DNA from: a virus
Taxonomy: Duplodnaviria > Heunggongvirae > Uroviricota > Caudoviricetes
Direction: 5' to 3' (one strand)
Virus record (IMG/VR): IMGVR_UViG_2534681762_000010
Length of the DNA stretch: 45,749 bases
Positions 3,484-45,749 of the stretch are shown here, in pieces. Position numbers and translations under genes: made by a program. The first letter of the stretch is position 1, and every line of letters starts with the position of its first letter. The notes beneath the pieces were generated by a model. That model was not told where the DNA came from. It was given only the letters and a program-made list of their open reading frames with translations, and made no database searches.

Positions 3484-6400
3484 TCAATGTTCGCTTCCTG
3501 TTAACTGCCGGACAAGTGCAACCAGTTCGCTTACCTGATTTTCCAGAGTGCTGATCCGGGTGCCTGCTGTTGCCAGATTTTCACGTAGCGTTGTGCTTTC
3601 CTCTTCCAGCGCGGTAACGCGAGCATCTGTTTCACGGGCGACCTGAACAAGTAAGCCAGTCACGGCGGCGTAGTCAACATTCAGATAACGTGTTTCTTCA
3701 CGTAATTCATTGCCGTCAACCGTTGGTCCCTGCAACTCTTCACCGTAATGAGTAAACGATCCCACAGCTTCTGGTATCGCCTCCATTACTTCCTGTGCAA
3801 TAACGCCAGCATAAGGCATCCCGTTTTCCTTGAGCGTGTAGGTGTATCCGTTCATTTTACGGATTGCTTTCGTCGCGTCGCTGATAACGAGAATATCGTC
3901 TTTAAGGTCGCGGTCTGATGACTGATTCAGCGTTGTGCAATTAATAGCGCCATTTACATCAAACAACTGGCCTGCTGACGTTTTTTGCGCATAAAACAGA
4001 TACGCAGCAGACGTTCCAACCTCAAAAACGTTTTGTCGATCACTTGATCCCCATACTTTTGCGGCAAATGATAGTTCTGTATTACCTAAGTTCTGTAAAA
4101 CAAAACGATTGCCAGTCCCTGTTTGTTTTGTAAGAGTTAAATCTACAGTTGAGTTAACCTCATCCTTGTTGATAGTGAGCGCCTGCGCTTTAGCCCCGTT
4201 AACAGCACCTGTTTTGAGTTGAACCGCGCCGTCATTACCATTTAACAGTATCTCAGCTCCGCTAAAGAAATTTTTTAGCGTTAGCATCTTACTTACGCCG
4301 ACTGATGAACCCAACGCCCACGCGAGAGAATTACCGGTGCTATCAAACCCACGTACAAAGCAATCCATTTTGCTATAGTCTGACGTGCTTCCAAGGACAT
4401 CAATCCGCCCTCCGCCAGATTTTACCGGGTTAGATGTGGTTAATGACCTGACAGCAAGATCGGTAGATGAATTGAGATCGTCTACTGTTAGTAATTTCTT
4501 CCATTCCTGCGTCGTTCCATTTTCAATTGTTCTTCCCCAAAAACCGGAATTGCGGCCTCCGAACTGCACAGCATAATTTTTACTAAATTGAACATGAATG
4601 CCGCCAAGAACCATAGAGCCTGCCGGGCCGTTTGTACTGCCTGCGATTGGTCTAAATTTGTCGACGTTATCAGTATGCTGAGCGTTCCAGTCATGACCTG
4701 TTAATGTTGCGATTCCTGAGTTAGCTGTAATTAACCCAGACGCTTTAAGATTTTGCACATCAATTCTGTCGTTTGCGAAATTATATGCAATTGCGTTACT
4801 AACGCTTCCGGCATCATCATAATCGCGTTTCTGAATAAACCAGTCGCCAGCATTAGCAATGAGAGTATAAGTAGGCGTGTTAGCCGGGCGATCTGTTTCA
4901 TTAAATCTTATTGCTGGGTTAGCGCTCCTTATTTGTAAAGGTTTTTCAACCGTTGATTTCAGTATCGCACTATCTACAATTAAATTACCTTCTGAGTTAA
5001 GGTTTAGATATTTTGAAGCACCAGTTGAACCATCGTATGTAAACCTTATTGTTAATTGACCTGGCTCATTTGATAAAGTTTCAACATACATATCAGCACC
5101 AAGACGCACAGTGCTGTCAGTTGCTAACAGTCTTGTATGGAGAATTCCACTAGATGTGTATGTACTGGTCGAATCACTATATCTATCAAGAAATAGACTG
5201 TTAAGTTGAGGGCTGTTGTTCCTACCTAAGCCAAGATTAGTTCTGGCACCATCAATAGTTGCCGCACCAGTACCACCATGAGAAACATCAAGCGGTATCC
5301 ATTTTTTTTGTGTGTCGCTGTAACACCCCCATGTTGATCCGGTTAAACCCAGGCGCATGGATTTATCATGGTTATATAACCATGTTTCGCTATTCCATTG
5401 GTCAAGACGGTCCACTTCATTTTTGCGAGCGTGGCGTGTCCATTGCGGGCCTATTGTCGGATTCCAGCGATAAGTATAAAGCGAGCGCGTAGCCCATCCC
5501 TGAAAAACACCTGTATACGCTGGTGTTCCATCTACCTGACTAATAAACCCCGTAAGACTGCTTTCACCGGATGCAATCGATGGAAAGCCTTTTGCATTAC
5601 TCATAATGCGCATAAATCCGATATACCCTGATGGGTTGCCGGAAATATCAGGACAATCACGCGGGGCTGAGCCAAGACCGATATTATCGCCAACAATTAC
5701 TTGCGCCTGGTTGCGATAATTAAGTGCGTCCGCCGCAGATTTCGCCGCGTTTGTTTCACTGGATTTAGCATTAGTTTCGCTGGCTTTAGCGTTTGTTTCG
5801 CTGCTCTTTGCTGCTGCCTCGCTATTTTTCGCGTTGGTTTCTGATTTTTTGGCTGCTGTCGCGGAGTTTGCCGATGCAGTTTGTGAGTCTGCTGCCGCCT
5901 GTGCGCTGTTATCCGCATTCGTCTCAGACGTTTTTGCGGCCTTCGCGGAATTTCCTGCCGCCGTTGCCGAGGAAGCGGCACTGCTGGCGCTCGAGGCAGC
6001 GCTCGTTTCTGATGATTTTGCCGCCTCTTTTGAAGCCGACGCATCCCGGGCTGAGGTGGCAGCTTCTGACGCTTTCGTGGTCGCGGTGGATGCAGAAGTG
6101 GCTGCTGATTGTTGTGATGCTGCAGCATTCGTTTCTGACGTTTTCGCCGCACCGGCACTGGTGGCTGCCGCGCTTTTTGAGGACTCTGCTGCGGCAGCAC
6201 TTTTTAATGCTTCAGTGGCCTTTGTTGATGCCGTTCCTGCGCTGGAAGACGCTGACTGAGCCGACGACGCGGCCTGTCCGGCTGACGTGTTGGCTGCGCG
6301 TGCTGAGCCTGCAGCATCAGTCGCATGGGTTGCCGCCTCACGGGCTGATGTGCTGGCATCGCTGGCTGACTTCTTCGCGGCTGCCGTGTCCTGTGCCACT

Positions 6401-29883: not shown

Positions 29884-30154
29884 AATGTTACCGTAATATG
29901 TGAGTATCCATCGACTAGACACTAAGCAAAAAAGCTCCCGAAGGAGCCTTCATTTTCACTTTCTTAAATCTAACGACAGATGGCTAACATTTAAGTATTG
30001 TGAAATATTATCAAATGTAATCATCATTGATTTACAAAAGATACATTTTGCCCCGAAAGGATTTCTGTCAGAAACATCAAAAGATGATGTTCTATACTGA
30101 GAACCATGGCAACACGGGCATCTGAAGTGAATATGGTTTGTAATATTTTCTACC

Positions 30155-30367
30155 TCAAAGTGCCACTACATGAACAGCTGCAGGGCCTTTAGGTCCGTTC
30201 TCAATACCAAATTCGACTTCCTGATTCTCAGTTAACGTTTTGAAATCGTTGCTCTGAATAGCTGAGAAATGCACAAACACATCTTTGCTACCATCTTTCG
30301 GCGTGATGAAACCAAAACCTTTTTCAGGGTTAAACCATTTCACTAAACCAGTCATTTTGTTAGACAT
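30155..30367 (-). CDS. cspI: cold-shock protein (CspI/CspB-like)
   Basis: [23 protein letters not shown]... with RNP motifs; long AT-rich 5' UTR upstream. Confidence 0.75.
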
Positions 30368-30730
30368 CATTATTACCTTTTGAAGAAGTTAGCCCTTGGG
30401 CAGAATGGTCCGAAAAAAAATATCAGAGAGAAAAACCAACAAGGAAATCTCAAGAGGTACAAATAATAAAATTATAACAATGACTGCTTCAGATAATTTT
30501 GTAACAAACCAGAACACCATTAACGCATGATTAACCAACCATAGCAAGGATTACTTTTGTAAAGAAAAACACACGAATGAAACAATAGCTTTATTTATTA
30601 ATAAAACGTGTCATTCTGTCTAATGACCTTTTATCTTACCCTTAAGATTTCAAGGATTTTGACTCATGGAAGAGTCCTTTTTATTTAAATTTCACATTCA
30701 GCGCTAAAAATAATCCGATTTAATATTAAT

Positions 30731-33083: not shown

Positions 33084-33512
33084 TCAGGGTTTAAAATCCA
33101 GCACCCCATTTTGAAATACTTTATATACTTCCGGCGAAGGGGGGGCAGGTATATCAGCATTCTTTATCGCATTCATCGCTTCACGACATAAATCGAGGTC
33201 TCCACTTTCTCTTTTAACCTCCAGTAGAAGGCCATTCGGGGCCATATGCATTCTCAGTGTACACTCTTTTCCTGAATACTTACTCGCATCCCCGAACTGT
33301 TTTTCGATGGCGCTCTTGATTTGATGGGCATACAGACGGATATCCTCACTAACATCAGAAGTACGTTCAGATGAACTCACATACTGTGTCTCTATTGCTT
33401 TATCGGAGTAATATGATGTACGGTCATGATAATTTGTCGATACAGCATCACTGCACCCGATAATAATCCCACTAATAATCAACGTAAGAATTGATGCGCT
33501 ACGAAAACCCAT
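33084..33512 (-). CDS. outer-membrane lipoprotein with TolA-domain-III-like C-terminus (paralog 1)
   Basis: lipobox IIGC; C-terminus QIKSAIEKQFGDASKYSGKECTLRMHMAPNGLLLEVKRESGDLDLCREAMNAIKNADIPAPPSPEVYKVFQNGVLDFKP closely parallels the E. coli TolA C-terminal domain. Confidence 0.8.
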   Translation of the reverse strand: MGFRSASILTLIISGIIIGCSDAVSTNYHDRTSYYSDKAIETQYVSSSERTSDVSEDIRLYAHQIKSAIEKQFGDASKYSGKECTLRMHMAPNGLLLEVKRESGDLDLCREAMNAIKNADIPAPPSPEVYKVFQNGVLDFKP

Positions 33513-33571: not shown

Positions 33572-34045
33572 ACAGCGAATCAGATCAAATAAAACGCACA
33601 TTTGTTAACATTTACACAAAGTCTGCGTGGGATATTCTGAAAGAATATCCATAATGTGGAGAGAATCTATTGAAGTGCATGGTGCCGGGTGCCTCCCGGT
33701 GAATTCAGTACCAGCACCTGAATCCGCGATTATCCCATATACCTACTCGCTGATTGCCCCTCCGCACAGGGGGATTCACCATGCCAGTTTCTTTTAACAA
33801 ACTCCCCGCAAACCAGAGAACAGTCAACCGCCTGAATTGTGAAGTATTTAAAAATTTCTCCCGCTAACTGATACCCGGCTAACAGTCTGGCGTTTTCTTT
33901 TTCAGCAACGGGAAAGCAACAACCACCACACCCGCCACCAGCACACCGTCAGCCAGCACTGACATTATCCGGCTGCTGCAATGCCATTCACAAAAACAGT
34001 AAGCAATCACTTTTTACCGTAACAGGTGATAATCCAGATATGTAT

Positions 34046-34509: not shown

Positions 34510-34586
34510 TGGCGCGCTGTACTGGATTCGAACCAGTGACCGATTGCTTAGAAGGCAATTGCTCTGTCCGGCTGAGCTAACAACGC
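34510..34586 (-). tRNA. tRNA-Arg (anticodon UCU)
   Basis: GCGTTGTTAGCTCAGCCGGACAGAGCAATTGCCTTCTAAGCAATCGGTCACTGGTTCGAATCCAGTACAGCGCGCCA folds as cloverleaf; anticodon loop CTTCTAA; 3' CCA encoded. Confidence 0.9.
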
Positions 34587-34686
34587 TGAATACCGATAAT
34601 GGACCGCCATCGGGGACCCGCCCCCGCACCAACAACCCTGTTATCGTGTCGTCTGCTCTTCCTGATAAGCTAATGGCGGTTTGTGA

Positions 34687-34762
34687 TGGTGGCCCTTGCT
34701 GGATTTGAACCAGCGACCTGGCGATTATGAGTCGCTCGCTCTCACCACTGAGCTAAAGGGCC
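34687..34762 (-). tRNA. tRNA with anticodon CAU, most like tRNA-Ile2 (lysidine type; ileX/ileZ-like), alternatively tRNA-Met
   Basis: GGCCCTTTAGCTCAGTGGTGAGAGCGAGCGACTCATAATCGCCAGGTCGCTGGTTCAAATCCAGCAAGGGCCACCA; close to E. coli ileX. Confidence 0.9.
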
Positions 34763-37898: not shown

Positions 37899-38054
37899 TT
37901 ACTCCTCAGGTTCGTAGACTGTGAAGACAGCGACCTCCGTCTGGCCGGTTCGGATTCGTACCTCGCAGAGGTCTTTCCTCGTTACCAGTGCCGTCACTAT
38001 GACGGTTAAACAGATGACGATCAGGGCGATTAACATCGCCTTTTGCTGCTTCAT
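37899..38054 (-). CDS. hokD: Hok-family type I toxin (HokD/RelF-like); in-frame upstream extension to 38111 is mok-like
   Basis: MKQQKAMLIALIVICLTVIVTALVTRKDLCEVRIRTGQTEVAVFTVYEPEE; AAGGAG SD. Confidence 0.85.
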   Translation of the reverse strand: MKQQKAMLIALIVICLTVIVTALVTRKDLCEVRIRTGQTEVAVFTVYEPEE

Positions 38055-38640
38055 AGCCTGCTTCTCCTTGCCTTTCGGCACGTAAGAGGCTAACCTAGAT
38101 TTGCCGTTCATAGATTGAGCCTCAGATTAATGTTAAGCGTCTTGCAGGACGCGTAATGTTAACTGGGGCTTTTCTCTATCTGCCTTTGGTGTTCATGCCT
38201 GAGACAGATAGCCTCAAGCACCCGCAGCCATTCTACTTAACTCCCGTCACCTGGCCAATATAAAATCAATCAGAAAGGCGATCCATAAGAACAACAGCAA
38301 GACAATAAATTGCCATTACAGCTGCAATAGCCAGCGCACATTTGAGAACCAGCACGACAACCTCCTGTATTGGACGTACACCAGTCCTGATAAATATGAG
38401 GCTCTCTCATCATTGATGAGATACAACTATTGGGTATAGTTTCTGTGATTTTGTTCTGTAGAAATGGAACACAACAACCAGTAACCACCAGCGATTCTTT
38501 AAATACGCCAAATCCGACGCAAGCTAACCTTCTAGTCCGCTTTGGGCGAAGACCGGACGTTCGATAGGTGTGAACTAGTAACTTTAAAAACATTTAATTA
38601 CCAGTAAAAAAACAAGAATATACTATCACTTTTCCAATTT

Positions 38641-41344: not shown

Positions 41345-41770
41345 TTAGTGCATCACCACAGCATTCCCTGCCGGGCCGCCGCGATTCATCTGGTCATACA
41401 AAACAACCGCTGACGCAACAAAATCATCGACATCCTTCACCAGCCGATCCCTCCGTTCGACGATCTCACGGTAATATTCAGAACTGTGGCTGCGCATACG
41501 GGCCACCAGCAAAGGCGGCATCGCCTTTTCGATCGCCGGTAACAGAGCCTGCATTTTTTCAACAGCATCAGGGGTGTCTTTATCCAGCCAACGGAAAATT
41601 TTCTGGGTATTACGGGCCAGGGCTTCCGGATGGCTGTCGTCGTACAGTTCAGGGAACGTCATCCCCAGTTCGAAATAAGTCCGGGCTATTTCAGCTGCAG
41701 GAACTTTCTCACCATCAGGGTATGCCCAGGCATTCATCGCCATGCGGATGTGCTCATGTTTGATTTTCAT
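41345..41770 (-). CDS. YdaT-like protein (Rac-type early-right gene)
   Basis: 141 aa, MKIKHEHIRMAMNAW...; occupies the cII position after the Cro-like gene. Confidence 0.55.
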   Translation of the reverse strand: MKIKHEHIRMAMNAWAYPDGEKVPAAEIARTYFELGMTFPELYDDSHPEALARNTQKIFRWLDKDTPDAVEKMQALLPAIEKAMPPLLVARMRSHSSEYYREIVERRDRLVKDVDDFVASAVVLYDQMNRGGPAGNAVVMH

Positions 41771-42077
41771 GAATCATTTGCCTCTTGATGCTTCGGGTAT
41801 GATCGTTTTCGTCATTTGGTTGCTTCATCGACATATTCTGCGAATAACATGACGAGCGTCGTAAGTATGTCCAATCAACATCAGGACGAAGTTCTTCACA
41901 CAGGACACCACCTTTTGTTGCTCGTTCAATCGCAGGACATCTCTCAGCAGGTAACTGACGTACACCTTTGATCCATTGATTTACGCTTGGAGGAGATACA
42001 CCTAAAAGCCTAGCCATTGCTGATTGCCCACCGACAACAGCACAAGCTCGTTTGAATGAATAGTTATCTTTTTTCAT
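41754..42077 (-). CDS. Cro-like HTH regulator (YdaS-like)
   Basis: HTH AMARLLGVSPPSVNQW; ATG 42077 with GGAG SD; divergent from repressor gene. Confidence 0.65.
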   Translation of the reverse strand: MKKDNYSFKRACAVVGGQSAMARLLGVSPPSVNQWIKGVRQLPAERCPAIERATKGGVLCEELRPDVDWTYLRRSSCYSQNMSMKQPNDENDHTRSIKRQMIHENQT

Positions 42078-42104
42078 CGAATGAACTCCAAAAAACACGC
42101 AACA

Positions 42105-42173
42105 ATATTAGGCTTAGCCTAATGAAATTGTCAATAGGCTATGCCTAATACATCGAGAGTAGGGATTGCCTAA
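42105..42173 (+). promoter_or_regulatory. right operator/promoter region: three dyad operators plus pR
   Basis: TTAGGCTTAGCCTAA (42108-42122), ATAGGCTATGCCTAA (42134-42148), GTAGGGATTGCCTAA (42159-42173), centres about 25 bp apart; minus-strand TTGACA (42129-42134) - 18 bp - TAATAT (42105-42110). Confidence 0.6.
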
Positions 42174-42201
42174 CGCGATGCGCATAGGAGACTATTAAGC
42201 A

Positions 42202-42678
42202 ATGCTTAGTGGTAAAGACTTAGGCCGAGCGATAGAGCAGGCCATTAACAAAAAAATTGCATCAGGAGCCGTCAAATCAAAGGCGGAAATCGCACGTCAT
42301 TTCAAAGTCCAACCACCATCAATCCATGACTGGATTAAGAAAGGTTCGATAAGTAAAGACAAACTTCCAGAACTATGGCGTTTCTTTTCTGATGTGGTTG
42401 GTCCAGAGCATTGGGGGCTTAACGAATACCCCATACCAACCCCATCCACTTCAGATACAAAAAGTGAACTTTTAGACATAAACAGCCTTTATCAAGCCGC
42501 CTCTGATGAAAAAAGAGCAATTGTGGCTTTCATCTTATCTGGAAATGCTACGGAGCCTAGTTGGGTTGATCATGACGTTCGCGCCTACATTGCCGCAATG
42601 GAAATGAAGGTAGCTAACTATCTGAAAAATCAAGAATCAAAACGGAAAAGCCAGAACATCACCAAGACAGGAACTTAA
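42202..42678 (+). CDS. prophage repressor (XRE-family HTH, RacR-like)
   Basis: 158 aa, HTH KAEIARHFKVQPPSIHDWIKKG; flanked by operator clusters on both sides; AGGAG SD. Confidence 0.75.
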   Translation: MLSGKDLGRAIEQAINKKIASGAVKSKAEIARHFKVQPPSIHDWIKKGSISKDKLPELWRFFSDVVGPEHWGLNEYPIPTPSTSDTKSELLDINSLYQAASDEKRAIVAFILSGNATEPSWVDHDVRAYIAAMEMKVANYLKNQESKRKSQNITKTGT

Positions 42679-42771
42679 ACTTATATGGCCCGACGGGAAA
42701 TTCCTAGTTCCCGTTAGTTAACTCCTACTACCTCTCCCACAAACCATCACCTATTAGGTTGCGCCCAAATT

Positions 42772-42815
42772 ATTAGGAATAGCCTATTGACAAGTAATTA
42801 GGCATTTCCTATAGT
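42772..42815 (+). promoter_or_regulatory. pL-like early-left promoter with overlapping operators
   Basis: TTGACA (42787-42792) - 17 bp - TATAGT (42810-42815); operator-like TTAGGAATAGCCTA and TTAGGCATTTCCTA overlap it. Confidence 0.6.
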
Positions 42816-42996
42816 TTTCCCATACCAACCCATCCCGTCCCACACAATACAGGGCAATACCTCGAGTTACCAGGCAGTGGTCAGGGGTTAAGTAGCCAGC
42901 CCGAGGCGTAAGAACATGACGGCAGGGTTCAACTTTAATAACTATGCAGCAGGTTTTTGTTCCGCTACCCCGGCGTTAAGGGGAAATGAGGTCAGC

Positions 42997-43149
42997 ATGG
43001 ATACTATCGAGCTTGGCAACAACGAATCTCTGGTATGCGGCGTGTTTCCCAACCAGGACGGCACGTTTACCGCGATGACATATACCAGAAGCAAAACGTT
43101 TAAAACTGAAGCTGGCGCGCGTCGCTGGTTAACCAGAAACACTGACTGA
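42997..43149 (+). CDS. YdfA/YdaG-family small protein
   Basis: MDTIELGNNESLVCGVFPNQDGTFTAMTYTRSKTFKTEAGARRWLTRNTD; GAGG SD; first gene of early-left operon. Confidence 0.5.
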   Translation: MDTIELGNNESLVCGVFPNQDGTFTAMTYTRSKTFKTEAGARRWLTRNTD

Positions 43150-43160
43150 TGAGGTTGACG

Positions 43161-43481
43161 ATGGAATTTAAAGATTTACCAGTACCATTCCAGGAAATGG
43201 CATCGAATGTGGTTCGCTCTCAACTGGCGACTCTTGACCTGAGTACCGTAGAAAAAGAAACCATCGACAATATATCCGGTAACGTACGCCGAGCCTTTAT
43301 CGGGCTGTACGAAGAGAAGCAGCTCTCTGATAACCAGGATTTACATGAAAAATACTTCCTGGATCTAATGGACATCATTGATAAGGGGTTTGGCTTGTTA
43401 ATGAAAAAGAAAGGGATTCGAATAGAACCCCTTGAAAATTACTTTGCAACAAAAAGCATTAATTCTTTTGATTCAAAATAA
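43161..43481 (+). CDS. hypothetical acidic protein (AT-rich gene)
   Basis: 106 aa from ATG 43161 with GAGG SD. Confidence 0.4.
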   Translation: MEFKDLPVPFQEMASNVVRSQLATLDLSTVEKETIDNISGNVRRAFIGLYEEKQLSDNQDLHEKYFLDLMDIIDKGFGLLMKKKGIRIEPLENYFATKSINSFDSK

Positions 43482-43734
43482 GAGAATTAATTACAGACTT
43501 AACATGCTCTTTCTCATGATTGAAGCTCTCATGATTGAAAGTGCCGGGTTGAAGCGAGTCGATATAATCAACAAGACTCTGTCGTACGACTTCATTTTTA
43601 TCCATAACAGATGCAAGAAATGAAATTGCTAAAAGAGTTATATCACTACGCGCCGCAGCATGTTGCAATGCTTTATCAAAATTATTAATCTGGCGTATCA
43701 GGGAGTTAATGATTTCATCATTTTCAGTCGACAT
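43459..43734 (-). CDS. hypothetical protein, convergent with and overlapping the preceding gene
   Basis: 91 aa from ATG 43734 with strong AGGAGGG SD; AT-rich. Confidence 0.45.
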   Translation of the reverse strand: MSTENDEIINSLIRQINNFDKALQHAAARSDITLLAISFLASVMDKNEVVRQSLVDYIDSLQPGTFNHESFNHEKEHVKSVINSLILNQKN

Positions 43735-44069
43735 TTCACCCTCCTGAGGGTTGGTGATTAAGGAGTTCTCCACGGGTGAGGTGGAGTGCGTGCGCCGGAC
43801 ACGGGTGAGCATCCGGCACTGACAGTTTACTGAAAGGATATTTCCCTGAAAAGTCAGACCATAACGCGAAAGCGCACGGCGAGGTAGCTGGTTCATAGAT
43901 AGCCTGTCGTTAAATTTTCGTCGACCGTGCGCTTCCGGTTGTGGCAATCCGCGAAATGGCGCGGCGGTAAGTATGGCGGGGTTATTCCTTCCCCCGTTGA
44001 GGACACCGGGTTGTCAGGTTGACCATACGCTTAAGTGACAACCCCGCTGCAACGCCCTCTGTTATCAAT

Positions 44070-44122
44070 TTTCTGGTGACGTTTGGCGGTATCAGTTTTA
44101 CTCCGTGACTGCTCTGCCGCCC
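44070..44122 (+). ncRNA. dicF: DicF small RNA (ftsZ translation inhibitor)
   Basis: TTTCTGGTGACGTTTGGCGGTATCAGTTTTACTCCGTGACTGCTCTGCCGCCC followed by TTTTT, matching the 53-nt DicF sequence as I recall it; located just upstream of dicB as in Qin. Confidence 0.7.
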
Positions 44123-44296
44123 TTTTTAAAGTGAATTTTGTGATGTGGTGAATGCGGCTGAGCGCACACGGAACAGTTAAAACCAAAAACAGTGTTATGG
44201 GTGGATTCTCTGTATCCGGCGTTAATTGTTAACTGGTTAACGTCACCTGGAGGCACCAGGCACCGCATCACAAAATTCATTGTTGAGGACGCGATA

Positions 44297-44485
44297 ATGG
44301 AAACGTTATTACCAAACGTTAATACGTCTGAAGGTTGTTTTGAAATTGGTGTCAATATCAGTAACCCTGTATTTACTGAAGATGCCATTAACAAGAGAAA
44401 ACACGAACGGGAGCTATTAAATAAAATATGCATTCTTTCAATGCTGGCCCGTTTACGTCCGATACAAAAAGGATGCTGGCAATGA
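44297..44485 (+). CDS. dicB: DicB-like cell-division inhibitor
   Basis: 62 aa METLLPNVNTSEGCFEIGVNISNPVFTEDAINKRKHERELLNKICILSMLARLRPIQKGCWQ; GAGGA SD. Confidence 0.7.
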   Translation: METLLPNVNTSEGCFEIGVNISNPVFTEDAINKRKHERELLNKICILSMLARLRPIQKGCWQ

Positions 44486-44673
44486 ATACAGCATTTGCAC
44501 TTGTTCTGACAGTTTTTCTTGTTTCCGGAGAGCCAGTTGATATTGCAGTCAGTGTTCACAGGACAATGCAGGAGTGTGTGACTGCAGCAACCGAACAGAA
44601 AATTCCCGGTAACTGTTACCCGGTCGATAAAGTTATTCACCAGGATAATAACGAAATCCCGGCAGGTCTTTAA
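44482..44673 (+). CDS. ydfD: YdfD-like small secreted/membrane lysis protein
   Basis: 63 aa MNTAFALVLTVFLVSGEPVD...; AAGGA SD; directly follows dicB as in Qin. Confidence 0.6.
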   Translation: MNTAFALVLTVFLVSGEPVDIAVSVHRTMQECVTAATEQKIPGNCYPVDKVIHQDNNEIPAGL

Positions 44674-44765
44674 AACAGTTCCGTAATAAATATCCGGTTT
44701 CATTCTTATATGCCAGCAATGGCAGGGATTTGCTCACCCTTAAATCTGTAATGAGGTAAAACAAA

Positions 44766-45749
44766 ATGAGTAAAGTCTTTATTTGCGCCGCCATTCCGGA
44801 CGAACAGGCAATAAAGGAAGAAGGTGCCGTCGCTGTAGCCACTGCCATTGAAGCCGGTGATGAACGTCGCGCCCGCGCAAAATTTCACTGGCAATTCCTG
44901 GAGCATTATCCGGCTGCTCAGGACTGCGCTTATAAATTTCTTGTCTGCGAGGATAAACCCGGTATACCCCGCCCTGCCCTCGATTCCTGGGATGCTGAAT
45001 ATATGCAGGAAAATCGCTGGGATGAGGAGTCTGCTTCCTTTGTCCCGGTTGAGACTGAATCCGATCCGATGAACGTCACTTTTGACAAGCTGGCCCCTGA
45101 AGTACAGAACGCTGTCATGGTTAAGTTCGACACATGTGAAAACATCACCGTTGATATGGTTATTAGCGCACAGGAATTGTTGCAGGAAGACATGGCAACA
45201 TTCGACGGACATATCGTTGAAGCGTTGATGAAAATGCCAGAAGTTAACGCCATGTATCCGGAGCTTAAGCTGCATGCCATCGGGTGGGTTAAGCATAAAT
45301 GTAAGCCTGGTGCCAAATGGCCCGAAATTCAGGCAGAGATGCGCATCTGGAAAAAACGTCGCGAAGGTGAACGCAAGGAAACCGGAAAATACACGTCTGT
45401 TGTTGATCTCGCCCGCGCCAGAACCAATCAACAGCACAGTGAAAATTCAACAGGAAAAATCAGCCCGGTCATTGCTGCCATTCATCGCGAATACAAGCAG
45501 ACATGGAAAACACTGGATGACGAACTGGCCTACGCTCTCTGGCCTGGTGATGTGGATGCCGGAAACATTGACGGCAGCATCCATCGCTGGGCAAAAAATG
45601 AAGTTATCGACAACGACCGCGAAGACTGGAAGCGTATCTCGGCATCAATGCGCAAACAGCCTGATGCCCTTCGCTACGACCGCCAGACTATTTTTGGCCT
45701 TGTCCGTGAACGTCCGATCGACATTCACAAAGACCCTGTGGCACTGAAC
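44766..45749 (+). CDS. large early-left-operon protein, 5' part only (runs off window end); YdfE-like by position
   Basis: ATG 44766 with GAGG SD 9 nt upstream; 328 codons without stop to the window end; absent from the supplied ORF track but verified codon by codon. Confidence 0.6.
   Translation, partial: MSKVFICAAIPDEQAIKEEGAVAVATAIEAGDERRARAKFHWQFLEHYPAAQDCAYKFLVCEDKPGIPRPALDSWDAEYMQENRWDEESASFVPVETESDPMNVTFDKLAPEVQNAVMVKFDTCENITVDMVISAQELLQEDMATFDGHIVEALMKMPEVNAMYPELKLHAIGWVKHKCKPGAKWPEIQAEMRIWKKRREGERKETGKYTSVVDLARARTNQQHSENSTGKISPVIAAIHREYKQTWKTLDDELAYALWPGDVDAGNIDGSIHRWAKNEVIDNDREDWKRISASMRKQPDALRYDRQTIFGLVRERPIDIHKDPVALN

Follow-up and report, generated by a model that had tools for sequence, protein, structure and literature searches.

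Positions 44070-44673 of the window, the stretch of 45,749 nucleotides analysed here, carry the small RNA gene dicF and the protein genes dicB and ydfD on the plus strand. They are preceded by a racR-type repressor gene and followed by an exonuclease gene. The coordinates given for this segment in the original prediction were all correct, as judged by reading of the sequence and the ORF listing over 43000-45749. Identity, coordinates and intactness of the following parts, as well as their conservation, were established in the present analysis:

42108-42173, no strand: OR-like cluster of three RacR-type operators (42108-42122, 42134-42148, 42159-42173) between a ydaS-like gene and racR
42202-42678, plus strand: racR-type repressor gene, 158 aa (NCBIfam equivalog NF049929, 246.3 bits, cutoff 200)
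42754-42815, plus strand: OL-like cluster of three RacR-type operators (42754-42768, 42773-42787, 42798-42812) together with a pL-like promoter
42997-43149, plus strand: ydfA/ydaF-like DUF1391 gene, 50 aa, first in the operon (PF07151, 97.8 bits; 88% identical to YdfA of K-12)
43161-43481, plus strand: gene for a 106-aa hypothetical protein, in place of ydfB and ydfC (phrog_6937, 6e-67; hypothetical protein in RefSeq)
43459-43734, minus strand: 91-aa gene, antiparallel to the operon, equipped with an AGGAGG site of its own and a terminator-like hairpin (43433-43411, minus strand)
43765-44069, plus strand: non-coding leader that precedes DicF in its precursor (98-99% identity with the K-12 DNA between ydfC and dicF, also non-coding)
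44070-44122, plus strand: DicF small RNA (RF00039; identical to dicF of K-12)
44123-44296, plus strand: T5 run and highly structured dicF-dicB spacer, up to the dicB Shine-Dalgarno sequence (MFE -64.7 kcal/mol, z-score -5.6)
44297-44485, plus strand: dicB, cell-division inhibitor, 62 aa (PF05358, 124.9 bits, cutoff 27; NF049927, 130 bits, cutoff 100)
44482-44673, plus strand: ydfD, DUF1482 gene for a putative lysis protein, 63 aa (PF07358, 88 bits, cutoff 25)
44098-44703, minus strand: spurious 201-aa ORF, not a gene (no family match, stops in homologues, exact sequence absent from a large protein collection)
44766-45749, plus strand: 5′ part of a RecE-like exonuclease gene (phrog_2082, exonuclease, 1.1e-257); the operon continues and the gene runs off the window

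The dicF-dicB-ydfD cassette and the frame that masks it

When the whole window was scanned with cmscan, RF00039 was hit on the plus strand at 44071-44122; the score of 76.7 bits (E = 2.6e-15) lies above the gathering score of 48, and the match spans the full model (positions 1-52 of 52). Alignment to the Qin prophage of K-12 gave identity in 53 of 53 bases between 44070-44122 and annotated dicF (b1574; L002 3883-3935). Folding revealed a 3′ hairpin in which 44085-44091 pairs with 44115-44121 outside an inner helix of 5 bp (-15.9 kcal/mol); this hairpin is followed in the sequence by CCC and then by TTTTT at 44123-44127. The original prediction had placed DicF with a U-tract terminator at exactly this site and had named an Rfam scan and a comparison with K-12 dicF as checks; both were run, and each returned a significant match to DicF. 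The DicF terminator is absent from the output of a simple terminator scan, likely because the outer 7-bp helix exceeds the permitted loop of 3-8 nt. dicB starts 175 nt downstream of DicF, and the order of the genes is that of K-12. In the genome that is 99.9% identical to the window (L001 9171-9222, NZ_CP101257.1), RefSeq lists dicB and the DUF1482 gene, with no DicF ncRNA feature.

DicF of K-12 represses ftsZ, xylR and pykA via base pairing, and for ftsZ the antisense pairing was proven experimentally for the RNA identical to the one described here (PMC5069750). For the RNA of the window, a duplex with the K-12 ftsZ mRNA from -29 to +5, around the Shine-Dalgarno sequence, was predicted with -27.9 kcal/mol; this prediction, made on a target from -30 to +6, is still only suggestive, with 25 of 1000 mononucleotide shuffles reaching the same energy. 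A duplex computed on a target of 120 nt was dropped because of its unrealistic structure with large loops and its weak significance.

The DicB models match over the full length of the protein (residues 1-62 of 62), which is 87% identical to DicB of K-12, with 8 of 62 residues different; a Shine-Dalgarno sequence, GAGGA at 44285-44289, lies 7 nt before the ATG at 44297. YdfD is 94% identical to its K-12 counterpart, has a hydrophobic N terminus (MNTAFALVLTVFLVSG) and is preceded by AAGGA at 44469-44473, 8 nt before the ATG at 44482. Stop codon of dicB and start codon of ydfD share the sequence ATGA. Pfam and NCBIfam models, the alignment to K-12 and the Shine-Dalgarno sites therefore bear out the earlier assignment of the 62-aa and 63-aa genes, with good ribosome-binding sites, to DicB and YdfD. 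That these genes are invisible to the ORF track was correct in one respect: they are masked by longer ORFs. They are not absent, since the mechanical list includes both frames, within ORFs extended to the first upstream start (44192-44485, 97 aa; 44428-44673, 81 aa). DicB of K-12 inhibits cell division in a MinC-dependent manner and also blocks ManYZ-dependent phage entry (PMC6832061), and the present allele, 87% identical, may act likewise. Lysis activity of K-12 YdfD was reported by Masuda et al. 2016 (cited in PMC11879457); by analogy, the YdfD described here may have the same function.

The minus-strand ORF of 201 aa was found exactly where the original prediction had it, at 44098-44703, and its designation there as spurious is borne out. 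No other ORF over this DNA is as long, and a weak promoter-like site (9 of 12 matches) is present on the minus strand at 44674-44645, but inside the ORF itself. The view that it is a real gene, with the plus-strand genes being artefacts or sharing the DNA with it, nevertheless has next to no chance of being correct and is already effectively refuted. The ORF has zero matches in Pfam, PHROG, NCBIfam and PADLOC, no Shine-Dalgarno motif can be read ahead of its ATG, and it crosses the DicF terminator in antisense. In four of five homologous loci (K-12, L004, L006 and L007) the frame contains one or two stop codons, and in K-12 it is divided into pieces of 111 and 71 aa; only in the 99.9% identical copy is it unbroken. 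dicB and ydfD, on the other hand, are free of stops and indels and constant in length in all five, and both are backed by experiments in K-12. Among about 15 billion predicted proteins the exact 201-aa sequence was not found, even though DNA of this kind is common: DicB and YdfD occur there in exactly the present form on at least 1000 contigs each. Gene callers that see this DNA hence skip the antisense ORF. Counts in the style of dN/dS are not low (in the most divergent pair, 27 non-synonymous versus 9 synonymous differences in dicB and 21 versus 10 in ydfD), so purifying selection on DicB and YdfD is not argued here; the case for coding is built instead on the integrity of the two ORFs versus the stop codons in antisense. 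Another objection is that the cassette may be a decaying remnant that has lost its activity. Many of the prophages that carry it are cryptic, and DicB has the 8 substitutions mentioned above. Against this, DicF is identical to the functional RNA of K-12, dicB and ydfD are full length with start, Shine-Dalgarno sequence and stop all intact, and the very same proteins recur on the many contigs just cited. We regard decay as very improbable and take the plus-strand genes as real and intact.

Leader, spacer and the variable genes

The two genes behind the DUF1391 gene stand where the Qin prophage of K-12 has ydfB and ydfC. PADLOC returned nothing for either. The 91-aa ORF overlaps the 3′ end of the 106-aa gene by 23 nt and has no family match in Pfam, PHROG, NCBIfam or PADLOC. 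The version in RefSeq/PGAP is longer (145 aa, 43459-43896, minus strand), and both the 91-aa and the 145-aa versions are deposited in public databases as hypothetical proteins. Judged from the sequence, the 145-aa version is probably over-extended into the conserved DicF leader, because the extra 54 codons cross the AGGAGG site into a leader that is non-coding in K-12. Other prophages with dicF (L004, L005 and L007) have different small genes in opposite orientation in the same slot upstream of the leader.

In K-12 a single promoter upstream of ydfA, under the control of a repressor, drives the operon; transcripts of about 1.1 kb stop at dicF, and others of about 1.6 kb reach through ydfD (PMC10448788). 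DicF is not an autonomous gene in K-12: RNase III produces a precursor of 190 nt from the long operon transcript and RNase E excises the 53-nt DicF (PMC10448788). The last ~137 nt of the leader described here, together with DicF, correspond to this 190-nt RNase III species (PMC10448788), and for the segment 43765-44130, which comprises leader and DicF, folding gave a z-score of -2.9. Given the high identity of the leader to that of K-12, the same processing pathway would be expected. Part of the leader (43938-44061, plus strand) also occurs alone: Stx2c phages, phage Ayreon and phage 2H10 have it with ~90% identity, and phage P1 with ~77%; in P1 it lies beside and overlaps a feature named "dicF-like region" after the C1-controlled ban promoter. 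When the P1 and Stx2c loci were scanned, zero DicF matches were obtained at E ≤ 0.01.

The spacer between dicF and dicB (44123-44296) folds with a closing helix of ~28 bp that ends at the ribosome-binding site of dicB. It gave a sub-threshold match to STnc100 (RF02076; 36.1 bits versus 47), and its architecture, with compensatory changes, is shared by the spacer between kilS and kilR of Rac and by a bona fide STnc100 elsewhere in the window (33623-33813). This STnc100 copy is a full match (114 bits, minus strand) downstream of a Q-like antiterminator and two tRNA genes; it lies just upstream of an ORF of 142 aa (33084-33512) whose N terminus looks lipoprotein-like by eye. In the divergent copies L004 and L007, identity to the window is as follows:

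3′ leader: 98% and 90%
dicF: 96%
dicF-dicB spacer: 97%
dicB: 71%
ydfD: 77%

The non-coding DNA 43933-44296 is thus 90-98% identical where dicB and ydfD are down to 71-77%, which is consistent with conserved signals for RNA processing and structure. It is tempting to speculate that the spacer is a functional STnc100-like RNA element and forms, together with the leader, a portable scaffold that lambdoid phages reuse and in which both the small RNA (DicF or KilS) and the division inhibitor (DicB or KilR) can be exchanged; at present we consider this doubtful, though worth stating. If true, the ~28-bp helix could be an entry site for RNase III or a translation gate for the toxic protein.

RacR-type operators and the left promoter

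The original prediction had noted a repressor nearby that is not of the Qin type. Indeed, the product of the repressor gene is an orthologue of RacR: it exceeds the cutoff of the NCBIfam equivalog, is 91% identical to RacR of K-12 and is annotated as racR in the 99.9% identical genome. No Pfam match was obtained for RacR of the window and, hence, no autocleavage domain was detected.

Repeat analysis uncovered a family of palindromes of the form TTAGGC-N3-GCCTAA. With at most one mismatch, TTAGGNNNNNCCTAA has six matches in the 45.7 kb versus 0.76 expected, and none of 100 shuffles reached six. Within the window these operators are confined to two clusters, one on the racR/ydaS side, where the ydaS-like gene is divergent from racR, and one downstream of racR. 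They match the RacR consensus derived from footprints, (T/A)TAGGC-n3-GCCTA(T/A) (PMC9638921); the footprinting covers the racR/ydaS side (PMC9638921). The three sites of the OL-like cluster have one mismatch each to the simple palindrome, and they sit on the -35 region, the spacer and the -10 region of the left promoter. This promoter (TTGACA at 42787-42792, a spacer of 17 nt, TATAGT at 42810-42815) has 11 of 12 matches to the sigma-70 consensus in a promoter scan; it is the only promoter-like site on the plus strand in 41700-45000 and points into the DicF operon. The layout of operators and promoter observed here is that of K-12 Rac: both clusters are conserved there, and the block of OR, racR, OL and promoter is colinear. 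In a comparison of 42679-42996 with the K-12 Rac locus (L003), the window is devoid of ydaG, with a clean gap of ~135 bp, and promoter, operators and transcript leader are conserved.

In K-12, interference with the expression of racR raises the early-left genes ydaG, ydaF, kilR, ydaE and racC 40- to 70-fold (PMC11014345). From the three operator matches on the left promoter, together with this transcriptome, we infer that RacR controls dicF-dicB-ydfD via the putative left operators; this inference is well supported.

Two other arrangements have to be weighed. DicF could come from a small-RNA gene that is transcribed autonomously, from a promoter of its own within the leader, rather than be a product processed from the operon transcript. 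Leader, dicF and spacer do move between prophages as one conserved block, and an older report, as referred to in PMC10448788, suggested an internal promoter. The promoter scan, however, found no promoter-like site on the plus strand between 42816 and 44070, and in K-12 primer extension and RNase mutants identified the 5′ ends as cuts made by RNase III and by RNase E and revealed no internal promoter (PMC10448788); with the leader being nearly the same as in K-12, autonomy is improbable, and processing from the operon transcript is the preferred explanation. Alternatively, the cassette could be outside the control of RacR: it might be silent, show constitutive leaky expression, or depend on another regulator or on transcripts reading through from racR. 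racR is directly upstream on the same strand and no terminator was detected after it, so that some transcripts from the racR promoters could conceivably read through; in addition, dicBp of K-12 also responds to antirepressor, stress and stochastic switching (PMC10448788), and binding of RacR at the left-hand sites is a prediction. On the other side, the three matches coincide exactly with the left promoter, the only others in the 45.7 kb being those of the OR cluster, and the same layout is kept in K-12 Rac, where the early-left genes respond so strongly to a fall in RacR (PMC11014345). We therefore consider a cassette independent of RacR unlikely, if slightly less so than an autonomous dicF, and proceed with RacR as the regulator.

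A dicBF operon behind a Rac-type immunity region

Altogether, the cassette very likely belongs to a lambdoid prophage's early-left ("pL") operon, in which the classic dicBF set is joined to a Rac-type immunity region. With the same high confidence, the DicA/DicC region of Qin appears to be replaced by one of the RacR type, with RacR as the presumed repressor at the left promoter.

The dicBF operon of Qin in K-12 (ydfABC-dicF-dicB-ydfDE) is the closest match on the side of the cassette. Order and orientation are equal, the leader of ~300 nt is shared, dicF is 100% and the spacer 99% identical, and at the amino acid level dicB is 87%, ydfD 94% and the homologue of ydfA 88% identical. The two operons differ in the repressor, which is DicA/DicC in Qin whereas repressor and operators are Rac-type here, and in ydfB and ydfC, which are replaced by the 106-aa gene and the oppositely oriented 91-aa gene. 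Furthermore, ydfE of Qin is a pseudogene with an IS2 insertion, whereas the exonuclease gene of the window is intact over at least its first 328 codons.

On the side of the immunity region, the match is the early-left operon of K-12 Rac (racR / ydaG-ydaF-[sieB]-kilS-kilR-ydaE-racC-recE). The repressor is 91% identical, and colinearity extends over OR and OL clusters, left promoter with its leader, and DUF1391 gene. The design further downstream is also alike, with an oppositely oriented gene followed by a small RNA and then a division inhibitor; downstream of the small RNA, the spacers share 79% identity over 170 nt. Rac has, however, KilS and KilR where the window carries DicF and DicB-YdfD. 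KilS of Rac (L003 1906-2003, minus strand), compared with 44020-44135, has the same position in the operon and the scaffold of the DicF terminator hairpin with a different 5′ part; on RF00039 it scored 39.1 bits, which is below the threshold. DicF/DicB and KilS/KilR have the look of exchangeable cassettes built on one shared scaffold. No paper on KilS turned up in a literature search.

The arrangement also resembles cI, OL-pL and kil of phage lambda. In both cases the repressor gene is co-directional with the downstream early-left operon, three operators over the left promoter have their counterpart in three others at the right-hand switch, and the early-left operon encodes an inhibitor of host division along with recombination functions. 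RacR differs from cI in having no sequence relationship to it, and an N-like antiterminator, as in lambda, was not identified here. An Rfam scan revealed other lambdoid cargo in the window, all on the minus strand: a hok/sok-type toxin with antisense RNA (37899-38223; sok, 110 bits), a thermoregulator 5′ UTR of the cspA family (30094-30525; 112 bits) and two tRNA genes (34513-34762).

The sequence of events in the operon can be sketched as a model; the processing pathway, the molecular targets and the repression of the left promoter by RacR are adopted in it by analogy to work in K-12. In the lysogen, RacR bound to the three operators that overlap the promoter (42787-42815) would keep the operon off. 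Upon loss or inactivation of RacR, transcription would start at ~42822 and proceed across the genes for the DUF1391 protein and the 106-aa protein and the structured leader of ~300 nt. RNase III and then RNase E would release the 53-nt DicF, as in K-12, with its 3′ end fixed by the hairpin and the T5 terminator. Read-through of the terminator would give the mRNA of dicB and ydfD, and onward that of exonuclease, xis and int; the two small genes would be linked translationally by the ATGA overlap. Since the DicF terminator lies between promoter and dicB, the amount of DicB and YdfD should depend on read-through, and the convergent 91-aa gene (43459-43734) between promoter and dicF could interfere with it. 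DicF would then pair with the ribosome-binding region of ftsZ and with the mRNAs of xylR and pykA and block their translation. DicB would bind MinC and direct it to the septum, where the Z ring is dismantled, and would also prevent the ManYZ-dependent entry of phage DNA. YdfD may act as a small, membrane-anchored lysis protein.

The set of dicF, dicB and ydfD is well known and very widespread in prophages. With leader-dicF-dicB-ydfD queries of 850-940 bp and a coverage of at least 80%, the cassette was found in 3,820-3,830 of 5,426 complete E. coli genomes, some of which have up to 10 copies; a distribution over many copies and many prophages was already described (PMC5069750). The order of DUF1391 gene, variable genes, leader, dicF, dicB, DUF1482 gene and exonuclease recurs behind different repressors in K-12 and four other loci. 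The full arrangement from racR to ydfD is a minority mosaic, present in 74 of the 5,426 genomes at the same coverage. In the closest genome (99.9% identical), a lambdoid prophage inserted next to ompW has it as its left arm, in the order racR, DUF1391 gene, two hypothetical genes, dicB, DUF1482 gene, exonuclease, xis and int, the last two following the exonuclease according to the annotation of that genome. Colinearity of that genome with the window breaks down in the left part of the latter, where different features are annotated upstream of its antiterminator; it was therefore unsuitable as a source of annotation for the window as a whole. Four EC21Z isolates match at 99.9%, and 55989 and an O104:H4 strain at 99.5-99.6%.

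The single unusual point is, therefore, the Rac-type rather than Qin-type repressor ahead of the dicBF cassette. Such wiring is routine, predictable mosaicism of lambdoid phages and no new principle. The main importance of the finding is in the quality of annotation, since a track of longest ORFs masks three real and potent products under a false gene of 201 aa. For the host, a drop in RacR is already lethal in K-12. The prophage described here would carry a division-blocking, lysis-prone cassette that is tied to RacR and not to DicA, so that lowered RacR should also release DicF, DicB and YdfD.
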